This document shows positions 3,315 to 40,507 of a DNA stretch of 44,836 bases, piece after piece (the stretch's first letter is position 1; every line of letters starts with the position of its first letter). The stretch is from assembly GCA_964016885.1 (NCBI GenBank), contig CAXHJY010001235.1, positions 1-44,836 on the forward strand. The letters are read 5' to 3'. Position numbers and translations under genes: made by a program. The notes under the pieces were generated by a model that saw only the letters and a list, made by a program, of their open reading frames with translations, did not search any database and had not been told where the DNA came from. This stretch comes from Eledone cirrhosa. Taxonomy: Eukaryota.

Positions 3315-3380
3315 TATTTTATCTGATGAAGATGTACTGAAAAAACAACACAGTACCTTTGAAATATATATAATAAAGCA
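3315..3380 (+). ncRNA. Type I hammerhead ribozyme motif (intact core)
   Basis: Stem I TATTTTAT/ATAAAGCA; CTGATGA 3323-3329; stem II AGATGTACTG...CAGTACCTTT; GAA 3361-3363; palindromic stem III ATATATAT; predicted cleavage after AUA (3372). Confidence 0.75.
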
Positions 3381-3399
3381 TATATATATATATATATAT

Positions 3400-3490
3400 A
3401 ATGAAGGATGTGTGTTAAGGAACCAGATGGACCATAAATAGCCGTTGAAACGGCTTGAGAGCTCTTCCATCGGGGTCAAACATTTTCCTA
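3400..3490. mobile_element. Rearranged copy of the short 'AACGAAGGA...GGACCATA' element, with internal inversion
   Basis: 3400-3436 matches 11628ff/37082ff in direct orientation; 3437-3490 matches the reverse complement of ~11707-11763; flanked by (TA)n. Confidence 0.7.
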
Positions 3491-3497
3491 TATATAT

Positions 3498-3970
3498 AAA
3501 GGTGCAGAGCACTAGAAGTTGATGGAAACCGCGGAGTGGGGAGACCCAAGATGACTTGGGATGAGGTGATAAAAGCCGACCTTACCCAACTACACCTCTC
3601 AAAGTCAATGACACACGACCGTGACTTCTGGCGTCACGCAGTAATACAGGGTACCCGACCTCCCATGGGTACATGCTGAAGCATATAAACAATATGCCCC
3701 CCCCCCCCCACCGCAAGGTGGTCGTGGAGGTGCCACGGCAAAAAAGCACCCAGCCCACACTGTAAAGTGGACGTGTAGGCGCCACGAAAAAGCACCCACC
3801 ACTCACTGTAAATGAGGTTGGTGTTAGGAAGGGCATCCAGCTGTAGAAATCAAGCCAGATCAGTTCCTGTATGAGCAAGGCATGGTCAGCCGACCAGACA
3901 CTGCCCACAACAGGACAACCCGTCTAACCCATGCTAGCGTGGAAGAACGGACGTAAAACGGTGATGATGA
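3498..3970 (+). mobile_element. 5'-truncated RTE LINE 3' end with SINE-like 3' region and (GAT)n tail
   Basis: Encodes RCRALEVDGNRGVGRPKMTWDEVIKADL; nearly identical by eye to 13056-13530. Confidence 0.85.
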
Positions 3971-4676
3971 TATATACACAAGCCAGAATCAGTTCCCGTC
4001 CTACCCTTGCAAGCAGGGAAAAGCGGACATAAAATGAAACAATGAAATGATATATATACACAATTATATATATACACACACACACACAATTATATATATA
4101 TATATGTCTATATATTGCTAGATCAAAACATATGTATCTAGGTCATTGACCCTATAAATATCATTCTGGAAGTGTGTTAGTTCTTTTTTAATTTTTTTTA
4201 TTTATTATTTAATTATTTTTTTACTCTTTTTCTTGGGTGTTGTTCCAATGAGGGAACATGGTAAGTATGTCAAACTTAGCTATTATGTATATCTCCAAAC
4301 TAACTAAAGAACTCTGAGCTACATACTGGAGATATTTATTTATATATACAGTGACACCATTTTTTACACAAGAGGAGTGTGGGGAGTAGTGCGACAGTAG
4401 GCAAACTAATAAAATATGTAGACTTTGTATTGTGGCAGACATAGAAGTAGTTGATAGCTTCTATTACCCAGGTGATAAAATATGTAGAAATGGGGTAGGT
4501 AGTAATTGTTGGTCTTGGATACACAAGAGGTGTAGTGGCATAGCAGGTAGACTAACAGAAAAGGTAGACCTTGTATGTGGCAAAAGTAGTTGATAGCTTC
4601 TATTACCTCGATGATAAATATATACACACACACACACACACATATATATATATATATGAAGAGTAAGAGCACGAAA

Positions 4677-4846
4677 ATCATGGGCGGAGGTGGTGAGAGC
4701 TGACCTCAGATCGCTGAAGCTCTCGGAGGAGATGACGAAGGACCGTGACGAATGGAGAGATGCTGTGCTGAATAGGACCCATCCAACCCTTGCAAGTAGA
4801 GAAAAGAGGATGTAAAATGATGATGATGATGATGATGATGATGATG
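4677..4846 (+). mobile_element. RTE LINE 3' tail fragment (second RTE family)
   Basis: WAEVVRADLRSLKLSEEMTKDRDEWRDAVLNRTHPTLAS then (GAT)n; matches 11112-11270 and 16828-16987. Confidence 0.8.
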
Positions 4847-5167
4847 CTGCATACTAACATTTTGGTAAGCAGAAAAGGGAGACAGGACCCTGATTCCGTC
4901 AGGTAAATGGCCCTGATAAATATGTAGTAAAGGACATACACAATGTAAATCTTGGCTACACAACAGGTGTAGTGTGATAGCAGGTAGACTAACAAAAAAG
5001 GTAGATTTTTGTATGTGGCACAGGTTATTTATTTTGAGAACAATAGCTTCACATCAGTATGAGTGGCCAGTTGCAGCCGGTTTGAACAGAAAGAGGTGAA
5101 AGAATTCTGGTTGGATACGGTCGGTCGATTTAAATGCTAAAGGGTCAAGGGCGTCTGGTTGTATAAC

Positions 5168-36934: not shown

Positions 36935-37081
36935 TATTGTTCTGCAACCCCATGCATTGAACCACAAAGTTACTAAGACAAAACCTATATATTTGCTAGC
37001 ATTGATATGCATCTGTATGTATATATATGTTACTAGATATTAATTCTTCATATATATATATATATATATATATATATATAT

Positions 37082-37216
37082 AACGAAGGAAATGTGGTAA
37101 GGAACCAGGTGGACCATAACGCACCAAAGTACTCAATACTTGGGGTAGTAGAGTGGGTAATAGGAACCAGTAAGACCCCGACGGCTCTCAGCCGTCGGGG
37201 TCTTACTGGTTCCTAT
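37082..37216. mobile_element. Short element ending in a perfect 27-bp hairpin, embedded in (TA)n
   Basis: ATAGGAACCAGTAAGACCCCGACGGCT-CTC-AGCCGTCGGGGTCTTACTGGTTCCTAT (37160-37216); 5' part matches 11628ff and 44755ff. Confidence 0.85.
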
Positions 37217-37718
37217 ATATATATATATATATATATATATATAATGATTAAAAGTAATATTATATATATATATAAACACACACATATATACATATATAGA
37301 TACATCCATATATATATATATATATATATATATATATATATATATATATATATATATACACACATATATACAGACACACACACACACCTATATACACACA
37401 CACGCACATATATATATATATATATATATATATATATACATACACATAAATATATATACATATATTGTATATATATAAGCAAAAGGGATATTCAATTTGT
37501 TGGTAATTCAACAAATATAAATGTTTATAACTGATTCAGAGCACCCGACAGGTTTTCTGGAGTATAATATTCAATGATAATATATCCATCCATCCATCAT
37601 CATCATCATCATCATCATCATCATCATCATCACCACCACCACCACCACCACCACCACCACCACCACCACCATCATCATCATCATCATCATCTATATATAT
37701 ATATATATATATATATAT

Positions 37719-38675
37719 ACTAGACATGAAAAATGCGCAAGCTCAAAAGTGCCACAGAATGTTATAATAAACCTTCAAAAGTGTGGGACTAGAGTTGTTG
37801 CTAAAAAATATTGTAATCATTATATATCGTACATTCTGTGGCATCCTTTATAAAAATAGCTTAAACCAACGAAGCCTTTATTTTTACGCTATTTCACTTA
37901 GTTAATTCTTAGAGTGTAACATATAAAAATATGATTTACAACTATAAAATAAATTAATTAATATAATAACAGAGCTGCGGAGCTGAAATTTAGGAAATAA
38001 TGGAGTATCGGATCCTGAGTTGGAGCCAGTCAATTTTTGGCCGACTCCGCAGCCCTGTATAATACATTTCATATTAAAGTTATTAATAAACCTATTTTAC
38101 ACTTCATGCAAATTACCACGAGATATTGATATTAGATATAAGATACAGCGCAATATCTACAGCTGTAAAAGTACGAAAGCGAAGTAATAATAAGTGGCTT
38201 AAGGTAATTCCAATATGAAAGTTTGTAGTGATAAAAATTTGATAATGCAATACGATTGTTAATATTATAGTTCTATGAAAATGTAACAATAGATAACTAA
38301 ATTATTTTACTATTAGTATATTTAAGAAATTATCATTATAGATTTGATCGTTCATATAAGCATCATATTAAGTTTCAACACAATTATTTTGTTACTATGA
38401 GTATATGATAATAATATTACGTAATTATTTATAGCTGTTATTACATTAAACATAGATGTATTTATTTTTATATGTTACACTCTAAGAATTAACTAAGTGA
38501 AATAGCGTAAAAATAAAGGCTTCGTTGGTTTAAGCTATTTTTATAAAGGATGCCACAGAATGTACGATATATAATGATTACAATATTTTTTAGCAACAAC
38601 TCTAGTCCCACACTTTTGAAGGTTTATTATAACATTCTGTGGCACTTTTGAGCTTGCGCATTTTTCATGTCTAGT
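37719..38675. repeat. 213-bp apparently perfect inverted repeat (37719-37931 / 38463-38675), foldback/MITE-like
   Basis: Arms are reverse complements; both outer ends read CTAGT; left end abuts (TA)n; no TSD found. Confidence 0.9.
37970..38057. mobile_element. 88-bp hAT MITE nested in the spacer of the 213-bp IR
   Basis: TIRs CAGAGCTGCGGAG / CTCCGCAGCCCTG; 8-bp TSD TATAATAA / TATAATAC. Confidence 0.75.
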
Positions 38676-39233
38676 TTAATATTTTTTTAAGGCAACGCTT
38701 GTAATAACTCTAGTTAAACAGGATATATATTAATAATAAATTATCGTTGTAATGTAATTAGATTATGTAATTGTTATTATAAATTATCTTATAAATATTA
38801 GTGTAAGATGTATAAAAATATTTTCAGACTTTTAATATAAACAACTACAAAAAACAATCAATATTAAATCAATATATTATACATAATAGAAAACATAAAA
38901 TATACAATACAAAAACAAAATATTTACATACAATTGCAATTATCAGTGTATATACATTTTCTTTATATTCCCTGAGCAAATTAATAAGATTTGTTTTTAT
39001 TGTACATAATTTGATGACTTGTTGGAGTGTATTAAAAGATAGCAACAATTTGTGATTAAATTGTTATCTTAAGCAACTCACTTTTTAATAGTTGTTGGCT
39101 GAGCGAAATTGTAAAAGCCTATGAGCAAATATAAAAAAAAATACACAAACAACATTTCCTTGTGTTATTACAACATTAGATAGAATAATTGAGCAATGTC
39201 GTTATATTTTGCTCTTATTGCACATTAATAGTG

Positions 39234-39397
39234 TTTCTATTTTTCGGCACAAATCCATTACGGCAGTCCATTACTGGTACTTTATTTTATCGAATTAGTA
39301 AGTATGAAAGTCGAAGTTAACCTCGGCAGGATTTGAACTTAGAATGCAAAGGACCATAACAATACTGCAAAGCATGGTGTCTGACGCTCTACCAATA
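39234..39397 (-). mobile_element. Decayed Nin/Deu-like SINE (another stub at ~40210-40260)
   Basis: TTACTGGTACTTTATTTTATCGA...AACCTCGGCAGGATTTGAACT, as at 18832-19017. Confidence 0.7.
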
Positions 39398-40463
39398 CTT
39401 GTGTTGAGCTGGTCATTAATTTATGGTGGTCGTGCGTGGAGTAGAGCAATCGCTAGTTGAAATATTATGAACAAAACATTTTTATTTGCCGAAGAACATA
39501 TTTTCAATACTGTTTGTGAATGTGACGAAGGAAATACATTCTGATATGGAACAGTGTACAAAGTGTGTCTGTGAATAACATAATGTTACCTCATGTTGTT
39601 GTCAAGACATAATGGATTTCGTATATCCAGTTAGAAGATGAAACCTAGCCATCTCGGATTAGTTATATTTCATGCCATGTGTAAACGTGTTTGAGGATAG
39701 CAAAATATGCGCGTTAATTATAATAATTAGTTAATAATATTACAAAATATACCTAATTAAACTCTTTGCTTGAAATTTTATCATTCTTCGTTTATATATA
39801 TATATATATATATATATATATAGAGAGAGAGAGAGAGAGGGAGAGAGATTTATCTAGTCCTTCGCTCAAGATTAATCTATAAGTTTAGATGTTTGCCTTC
39901 GTTTAAGTAAATATTACAGTAAGATTTTTAATATAAACAACTACAAAAAACAATTAATATTAAAACGAAAAAATTATCAATGATAAAAGAAGCGGATGCA
40001 ACTTTTTTTTTTATAAAGTTATATTCCTGTTTCTTTAAAGAACATTTCATTTTTGTTCTATTGTAGGCGAAATAATGCAATGGTTTAATAGGGAAGATAT
40101 AACTTACGAATTATGTCTCTAACCGTGTAACGCTTTTTAAGTAGATAACTACAATTGAAAATACTAAAGAAATGGAACCAACAATTCAATTTGAAAGTCG
40201 TCTAGTGACAGTGTATTACTGGTACTTTATTTTATCGACCCCGTAACGATGAAAGGCAAAAATGCAAATGCTTAAAATTTAAATTGCCTTAATTCTATCG
40301 TCTGCTGTTTCATTAAAGGGAGATTATCGTCTGTATTTAATTCTATCGTCTACTGTTCCACTAAACAGATATACCTCCACTATCGTCTCTATTTATACAT
40401 TTTAACTTATAACTTATACACATTTGATTTGAAATATTTTATCTAGTCCCCCCTCTCAATAAT

Positions 40464-40507
40464 ATGATGATTTCTTTCGAATGAAACAGTTCTAGTCCTG
40501 TAGAAGC
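40464..40507 (+). ncRNA. 5'-truncated copy of the 35381 hammerhead
   Basis: ATGATGA-TTTCTTTCGAAT-GAA-ACAGTTCTAGTCCTGT-A-GAAGCC; lacks C3 and the 5' strand of stem I, so probably inactive alone. Confidence 0.65.

Follow-up and report, generated by a model that had tools for sequence, protein, structure and literature searches.

Minimal hammerhead ribozymes are known from the pseudo-long terminal repeats (pLTRs) of Penelope-like elements (PLEs), where they share a type-I fold and a palindromic stem III, belong to many families per genome, and occur mostly as single copies or as opposite-strand pairs derived from truncated PLEs. These hammerheads have low activity in vitro, and a U3-A8 variant is already known in Schistosoma (PMC4209133). 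Hydra-1_Obim of Octopus bimaculoides is a (TA)n-inserting element of the Hydra clade and carries a hammerhead with the CUGAAGA motif (Craig et al., 2021, PMC8557442). Animal retrozymes are known from mussel, coral and axolotl and have been argued to derive from PLEs (PMC7229834; bioRxiv 10.64898/2026.07.22.740005); the four invertebrates of the latter source are three insects and one anthozoan. For PAc, a Poseidon element of Anolis, RT (reverse transcriptase) initiation at two sites and cleavage of both DNA strands were described in vitro (Frangieh et al., 2024, PMC11167929). The window analysed here, i.e., the whole stretch of 44,836 nt of Eledone cirrhosa contig CAXHJY010001235.1, is one entire small contig of a 3.0-Gb animal assembly and is rich in TA and other microsatellites. 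Its hammerhead motifs are best explained as type-I folds in the 3' ends of several PLE families and of small protein-free repeats, each likely inserted into (TA)n by a Penelope-type RT and endonuclease, and the probability of this reading is put at about 0.88. The biology of PLE pLTR hammerheads and animal retrozymes is already known, and the window holds new members of it, not a new system.

Six intact type-I folds were found, and with fragments included the window holds ten hammerhead families (A to J). They were located at 3317-3378 (+; family E, core 3323, stem III ATATATAT, H17 3372), 12158-12196 (+; family J, core 12163, stem III AGTACT, H17 12191), 12354-12414 (-; family A, core 12406, H17 12362), 21293-21335 (+; family B, core 21299, stem III ACTAGT, H17 21329), 35381-35431 (+; family C, core 35387, H17 35425) and 41457-41527 (-; family F, core 41519, stem III ATGCGCAT, H17 41465). 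The type-I arrangement was present in them, with CUGANGA (or U3-A8), GAAA and UH around stems I-III and stem I closing. A strict type-I descriptor matched three cores (3323+, 12406- and 41519-), as against a mean of 0.01-0.05 and a maximum of 1 in 900 dinucleotide shuffles of the window (3 × 300). A relaxed descriptor, in which U.U at 10.1-11.1 and U3-A8 were permitted and stem I had at least 5 bp, added 12163+, 21299+ and 35387+, and the resulting six folds compared with a mean of 0.02 and a maximum of 1 in 200 block shuffles. Half of the CTGANGA words in the window (8 of 16) fell in hammerhead families. No permuted (SGC or CSG) hammerhead was found in the window by a simple all-permutation descriptor, which bulged or extra-strand forms could escape, and an Rfam scan of the window gave only TA-repeat microRNA artefacts among the best 150 of 380 matches and was uninformative on hammerheads. 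A preliminary description of this DNA had named the folds with cores 3323+, 12406-, 21299+ and 35387+ together with their predicted cleavage positions, all of which were right; 12163+, 41519- and the whole of family G had been overlooked. It had counted at least five or six families in 45 kb, where ten were found, and it had proposed the comparison with shuffled sequence, from which the six folds stand out clearly. Its statement that the window holds no open reading frame (ORF) for an RT or GIY-YIG protein agrees with tblastn, by which no PLE protein match was obtained there.

To estimate the density of such folds in the genome, 60 regions of 10 kb each were taken at evenly spaced round coordinates, 599,800 bases in all. 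The sample gave 60 matches, whereas each of ten shuffles gave 0-1 and three decoy cores gave 0, 4 and 0. Three of the matches were (GAT)n artefacts and 26 lay in two arrays; with the artefacts set aside and the arrays either excluded or counted, 31-57 matches were left, which corresponds to 52-95 per Mb. Extrapolation gave 155,000-285,000 intact-looking folds per genome, a range that is loose because the matches were clustered (20 of the 60 regions). Given this density, six folds in 45 kb do not make the window exceptional for this genome.

For the covariation analysis, 20 sequences of the A/E superfamily (19 distinct), from 31 collected and the window copy of family A, were aligned. On the 19 distinct rows, the hammerhead structure paired 96.2% of the cells versus 32-60% in slid controls. 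In stem II, 6 of 9 pairs were altered on both sides, and the covariation score was reached by 0 of 500 shuffles. Stem III palindromes, those of families D and H among them, were altered on both sides as well (ACTGCCGGCAGT, ACTGTCGACAGT and ACTACCGGTAGT; ACAATTGT and ACGATCGT). Covariation across genomic copies, the lack of which the preliminary description had named as refuting its reading, was present in stem II and in the stem III palindromes and absent from stem I. The catalytic nucleotides of the A/E alignment were invariant though the stems diverged. In families D and G, C3-G8 was exchanged for U3-A8 as a pair, by which the pair of the catalytic core was kept. The core of family D, UUGAUAA, is a family-wide case of this U3-A8 covariation; the copy at 20571 had been taken for a core variant, of which only GGA (A13G) is private to the two arms in the window. 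Among other copies of family D, GAA was read in 10 of 12, AAA in one and TAA in one. The G10.1-C11.1 pair, a consensus tendency in PLE hammerheads (PMC4209133), was G-C in D, G and I; families A, B, C, E, F and J have A-U, G-U or U.U at this place. Thus most families here differ from the minimal PLE hammerheads in lacking this closing pair, and C, D and G differ in having monomer stems III of 4-5 bp.

For A, B, C, E, F and J, nearest-neighbour estimates placed the active monomer fold 4-8 kcal/mol above the minimum free energy (MFE); for D (locus L043) and G (locus L210), it was at most 0.3 kcal/mol away. The short palindromic stem III was predicted to be unstable as a monomer in A, B, E, F and J, C was rated intermediate, and D and G were rated stable. 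A dimer requirement for the short palindromic stems is plausible in terms of these energies. Cutting assisted by a dimer or by protein is predicted for the short palindromes, and cutting as a monomer is possible for D and G. The word minimal in the preliminary description therefore fits the short palindromic families and does not suit D and G.

The connection with PLEs was provided by families J and G. A GIY-YIG search of the genome gave 10,595 first-look candidates. In 5 of 40 GIY-YIG loci (L084, L085, L088, L093 and L095), J sequence lay 350-430 nt 3' of the end of an RT and GIY-YIG frame, with a hammerhead 93-98% identical to the window copy. The ORF of L084 matched RVT_1 with E 2.9e-6 (below the curated cut-off) and GIY-YIG with E 8.9e-7 (above the cut-off). 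The J parent frame has DKG, YLDD, a CX4CxxC linker and, at its C-terminus, a GIY-YIG domain, by which motifs it appears to be of the Neptune type (PMC8557442); a CX2-5CxxC linker is also a Nematis trait, and Neptune and Nematis are set apart here by motifs only. Neptune-type frames without a stop were also seen in L081 (938 codons) and L082 (844 codons), which is a sign of recent PLE activity. For family G, the 5' core was absent and the 5' end truncated in 35 of 35 long-arm copies examined, so these cannot be functional ribozyme monomers. Full copies, recovered by a query with the upstream part of L019, combine ACCCCC-UUGACAA with a long stem II and a stem III of 5 bp. G lay about 820-875 nt 3' of a GIY-YIG match in nine loci and 371 nt in a tenth, and L210 carries the G hammerhead twice, once at either end and 3,096 nt apart, with fragments of the ORF in between. 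The G parent frames were broken in all fetched copies; RWR, DKT, YRDDG, CxCX5C, CxxC and CxH, with no CCHH, could be read by eye, and the protein was by eye similar to the published Hydra-1_Obim. By motif, the G parent would be of the Hydra type, with which it shares these motifs, a unit length of about 3.1 kb, insertion into (TA)n and the presence of a hammerhead (PMC8557442). It differs from Hydra-1_Obim in its U3-A8 core, long stem II and 5-bp stem III, and most copies stop inside stem II. Because of its CxCX5C and DKT motifs, the G parent was assigned to Hydra in preference to Nematis, and a scrambled (SGC-type) hammerhead was rejected for G, the full copies having the ordinary type-I order and the UUGACAA core. 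A second Hydra-type frame was observed in L215. The 5' ends of G (L162-L185 and bystander copies) clustered 30-47 nt upstream of the cleavage site, in stem II or its loop, and truncated G can fold GCCGT-CGAA-ACGGC, a hairpin competing with stem III; this may reflect a stop of the RT or an inactive switch.

Judged from these sequences, J and G in the window are truncated pLTR ends of protein-coding PLEs located elsewhere in the genome. The J copy at 12123-12268 (+), the 3' end of the Neptune-type RT and GIY-YIG element, has about 78 nt deleted. Family G was represented by 3' halves only: a short-end fragment at 3442-3497 (+) with the hammerhead 3' half, a long-end arm at 11629-11769 (-), which is the 3' end of the Hydra-type PLE truncated in stem II, a short-end fragment at 20963-20995 (-), a back-to-back pair at 37083-37213 on both strands, whose two arms end just 5' of the cleavage site, and a long tail at 44756-44836 (-) cut by the contig end.

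Families B and D were of another kind. B has a unit of about 423 nt that occurs as dimers, trimers and a 10-kb array with spacings of 419-426 nt or doubles of these (L139). Each unit has one type-I hammerhead, 37% GC and a longest ORF from Met of 60 aa; copies are 98-99% identical, and the core is kept in most units of the arrays. In the window, a partial tandem of B at 21053-21600 (+) adjoins an inverted short copy at 21004-21052 (-), in which GAA reads GAG; the latter had been listed as decayed near 21013, and rightly so. D is a closed 706-nt unit with a longest ORF of 54 aa. The junction of its 3' end with its own start is present in the window and again in L043, L045 and L047; only partial tandems were seen. 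Its window copy (19812-20963) comprises a partial tandem on the minus strand (19812-20563) and an inverted arm (20562-20963), with U3-A8 hammerheads at 20239-20324 (-) and 20571-20656 (+). By their sequences, B and D are protein-free, retrozyme-like units that close head to tail. B resembles animal non-LTR retrozymes in its ORF-less tandem units, GC content and one type-I hammerhead per unit, and D in its closed unit; both differ in having PLE-type inverted arms, D also in its U3-A8 core. The Penelope-like or retrozyme origin suggested in the preliminary description thus holds, with RT and GIY-YIG parents for J and G and closed ORF-less units for B and D. Its term non-autonomous is apt for B and D and fails for J and G; a portion of the A superfamily is probably protein-free as well. 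In the A2 subfamily, palindromes were arranged around one fixed central hairpin in 25 of 25 loci (L265-L289), the query having contained part of the hairpin, and among the matches listed none of the 25 loci showed an ORF of the same family upstream. The shared hairpin suggests a protein-free mini-element, and the sequences point to a fold-back synthesis product or a self-propagating palindromic mini-element. First-look genome candidates, which are not copy numbers, amounted to 1,605 for A, 1,102 for B, 2,285 for C, 2,578 for D, 2,279 for E, 1,558 for G, 782 for H and 877 for I.

In 32 of 36 copies of the even sample, the 150 nt downstream of the cleavage site held a (TA)4 run, versus 22% of random positions, which bears out the (TA)n preference proposed earlier; the internal TA run of family B has a bearing on this count. 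Copies ended at two offsets from the cleavage site (17/97 nt in G, 48/139 in A, 21/89 in C, 45/136 in F and 47/152 in E). Back-to-back pairs had one long and one short end in 46 of 47 scorable cases, i.e., 22 of 23 in G, A, C, E and F and 24 of 24 in A2; in the former count, one pair was not scorable and a G cross-pair in L131, whose arms belong to two insertions (gap 511), was excluded. This pairing is the published Penelope 'tail'. Other traits of endonuclease-containing (EN+) PLEs, namely 5' truncation, an inverted copy and a tail at one end, were present as well. PAc has in common with these families two RT start sites that give the genomic tail, AT-rich targets, extension on both strands and an uncut RNA template. 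The tails here are longer (about 68-105 nt versus 30-40 bp cited), and the strict pairing of one long with one short end was counted here over five families.

A mechanism can be proposed in these terms. Following the in vitro work on the anole PLE, the GIY-YIG domain would cleave TA-rich DNA on both strands. The RT would begin at two internal sites in the RNA, both of them 3' of the ribozyme, one for each DNA end. Two mostly short complementary DNAs would then be joined back to back, so that an arm with the long end and an arm with the short end remain. Mostly uncut RNA would serve as the template, and the ribozyme may act at another step, e.g., when tandem transcripts are trimmed into monomers or circles. 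The ribozymes of A, B, E, F, H and J, with their short palindromic stems, would act as dimers or with the help of protein, those of D and G possibly as monomers, and B and D would borrow a PLE enzyme in trans.

Several points weigh against this account. Among 177 bystander copies from families G, C, F, A2 and I, not one started at the predicted cleavage site and 155 ran through it, in a count from which J was left out (its reference included TA flank), in which short-end arms starting at the site would be too short to detect and in which subfamily divergence blurs the 5' ends. Uncut RNA was hence the likely template, and since copies run through the site, the genome offers no direct sign of cutting. 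For PAc, insertion in vitro did not need hammerhead cleavage, and RNA-seq was reported to show no ends at the site (PMC11167929). The three pairs of family H were one long-short, one short-short and one ambiguous; pairs of B, D and I were unscored because of internal TA runs; and the G and A2 loci were partly picked by queries favouring one arm type. In the covariation analysis, the control ignores the relatedness of the rows, the count of double-changed pairs alone was reached by 84 of 500 shuffles and was not significant, and stem I had one-sided changes only. The clade names of the J and G parents rest on motifs and not on a tree. The search for linked RT and GIY-YIG ORFs, also proposed earlier, succeeded for J and G and gave none for the other eight families, with no parent ORF found near the sampled loci of A, C, E, F, H and I. 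For C and A2, there were PLE protein matches near 49 loci, none of which, among the matches listed, was attributable to the family's own upstream, and the similarity between C copies, as far as listed, ended at a GT/TA microsatellite roughly 300 nt upstream.

The run-through copies, the weak in vitro activity of minimal PLE hammerheads (PMC4209133) and insertion without cleavage in PAc would also be expected if the folds were kept as protein-binding or RT-positioning structures that rarely or never cut RNA in vivo. This explanation is considered unlikely, as it has to contend with catalytic nucleotides that are invariant across divergent stems, with the joint replacement of C3-G8 by U3-A8 in D and G, and with B arrays that keep the core in most units. 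It has also to be asked whether every family is a solo or truncated pLTR of an autonomous PLE, none replicating non-autonomously. That is the case for J and G, and the end of C similarity at a microsatellite is what truncation in a long, repeat-rich 3' untranslated region would give; however, the idea is contradicted for B by the 10-kb head-to-tail array and for D by the junction of its 3' end with its own start at four loci including the window, and A2, with its common central hairpin and no family ORF upstream, fits it poorly. As a statement about every family it is very improbable. The opposite generalisation, taken whole from the earlier inference, is that every family is a non-autonomous retrozyme spreading via circular RNA. 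B and D fit this description, the window has no ORF, and animal retrozymes exist (PMC7229834; bioRxiv 2026.07.22.740005), but J and G extend into RT and GIY-YIG frames, which refutes it for both, and the coreless long-arm G copies are not functional monomers; it can hardly be maintained. Chance matches in AT-rich, palindrome-prone microsatellite DNA would be favoured by the TA-rich window, the 3 (GAT)n artefacts among the 60 sample matches and the decoy core with 4 matches in 600 kb. Shuffled sequence gave 0-1 matches per 600 kb versus 60, the decoys remained at 0, 4 and 0, and families with hundreds to thousands of candidates and covariation were found, so that chance is refuted and its probability is practically nil.

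Hammerheads inserted by Penelope-type enzymes, as preferred here, gain their main interest from number. Published counts obtained with other descriptors are more than 6,000 in coral, about 5,000 in mussel and up to 120,000 in axolotl (PMC7229834), and the estimate here is far above the counts of about 4,000 in coelacanth and 9,000 in Xenopus given by another descriptor (PMC4209133). If the extrapolation holds, the genome has more folds than the 120,000 of the roughly nine times larger axolotl genome, the descriptors being different. No genome-wide survey of cephalopod hammerheads was found in the literature searched, which did not extend to subscription papers, and the main text of PMC13282606 has neither 'ribozyme' nor 'retrozyme'. 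It may tentatively be proposed that this is the densest hammerhead population yet reported, with about 155,000-285,000 intact-looking folds in dozens of families, in which young retrozymes (B) give rise to circular RNAs that Hydra- or Neptune-type enzymes of the same genome insert in trans, and in which the U3-A8 ribozymes of D and G cleave as monomers; the proposal as a whole is rather doubtful. If it were true, family-specific tail lengths could match each protein-free family to its enzyme. Density is the outstanding point, and the main value is that of a resource: there is natural variation among the families in the core (C3-G8 or U3-A8) and in the length of stem III, and several families that are young and have fixed ends stand beside their candidate enzymes. 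Two questions become easier to approach, namely the role of PLE hammerheads given insertions from uncut RNA, and the enzyme that moves animal retrozymes. Two of the 60 sampled regions lay in retrozyme arrays, one of family B over 10 kb (L139, C28:110,000,001-110,010,000) and one of a 310-nt unit with stem III ACGCGT (L152, C3:190,000,001-190,010,000). A further family with a spacing of about 467 nt was seen in L150.

The remaining hammerhead copies of the window are arms and fragments. The intact E fold lies in an arm with an inverted tail piece (3237-3385, +), the A fold in a short-end arm with an inverted long tail at about 12475-12552 (12312-12552, -), and the F fold in a long-end arm (41322-41583, -). 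The C fold belongs to a short-end arm (35105-35441, +) whose parent was not found; its stem III had been called self-complementary and is in fact ACAG/CTGT around an 8-nt loop, i.e., a 4-bp stem and an imperfect palindrome. A C fragment at 40464-40518 (+) is without C3 and the stem I 5' strand and had been listed as decayed. The H pair at 9963-10216 (arms 9963-10042 minus and 10055-10216 plus) has lost both cores at the junction; the copies near 10015 had been called decayed, and the loss is real, its cause being a cut at the inversion junction and not mere decay; relatives have intact folds with stem III ACAATTGT or ACGATCGT. The I pair at 11795-12095 on both strands is decayed, as had been noted for 11794/11955: GAA reads AAA in both copies and the plus copy also has CTAATGA, while relatives are intact. 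A stem III listed earlier as ACTCTAGAGT was misread, the window having ACTCTAGAGA and ACTCCAGAGT, with GAA lost in both copies.

The A superfamily is further represented by pieces at 36615-36750, 37482-37553 and about 34805-34850 that consist of the tail alone and have no ribozyme. A 216-nt inverted repeat, 100% identical, is formed by 37716-37931 and 38463-38678 around 531 nt; it has TA flank on the left only, no hammerhead core was found in it, and it may be another PLE pair or a miniature inverted-repeat transposable element. Small palindromes flanked by TA at 36830-36935 and 41199-41253 are probably very short PLE end pairs. Two adjoining frames of a decayed transposase at 234-1256 (+), recognised by eye, are taken to be Tc1/mariner-like. 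The 3' fragments with (ATG)n tails at 3494-3961, 10906-11248, 12711-13520 and 16427-16962 are presumably of an RTE-like long interspersed element (LINE). At 35445-36060 and 41760-42575 lie elements that carry subterminal hairpins, end in CTAG next to TA and are assumed to be Helentron/HINE-like.

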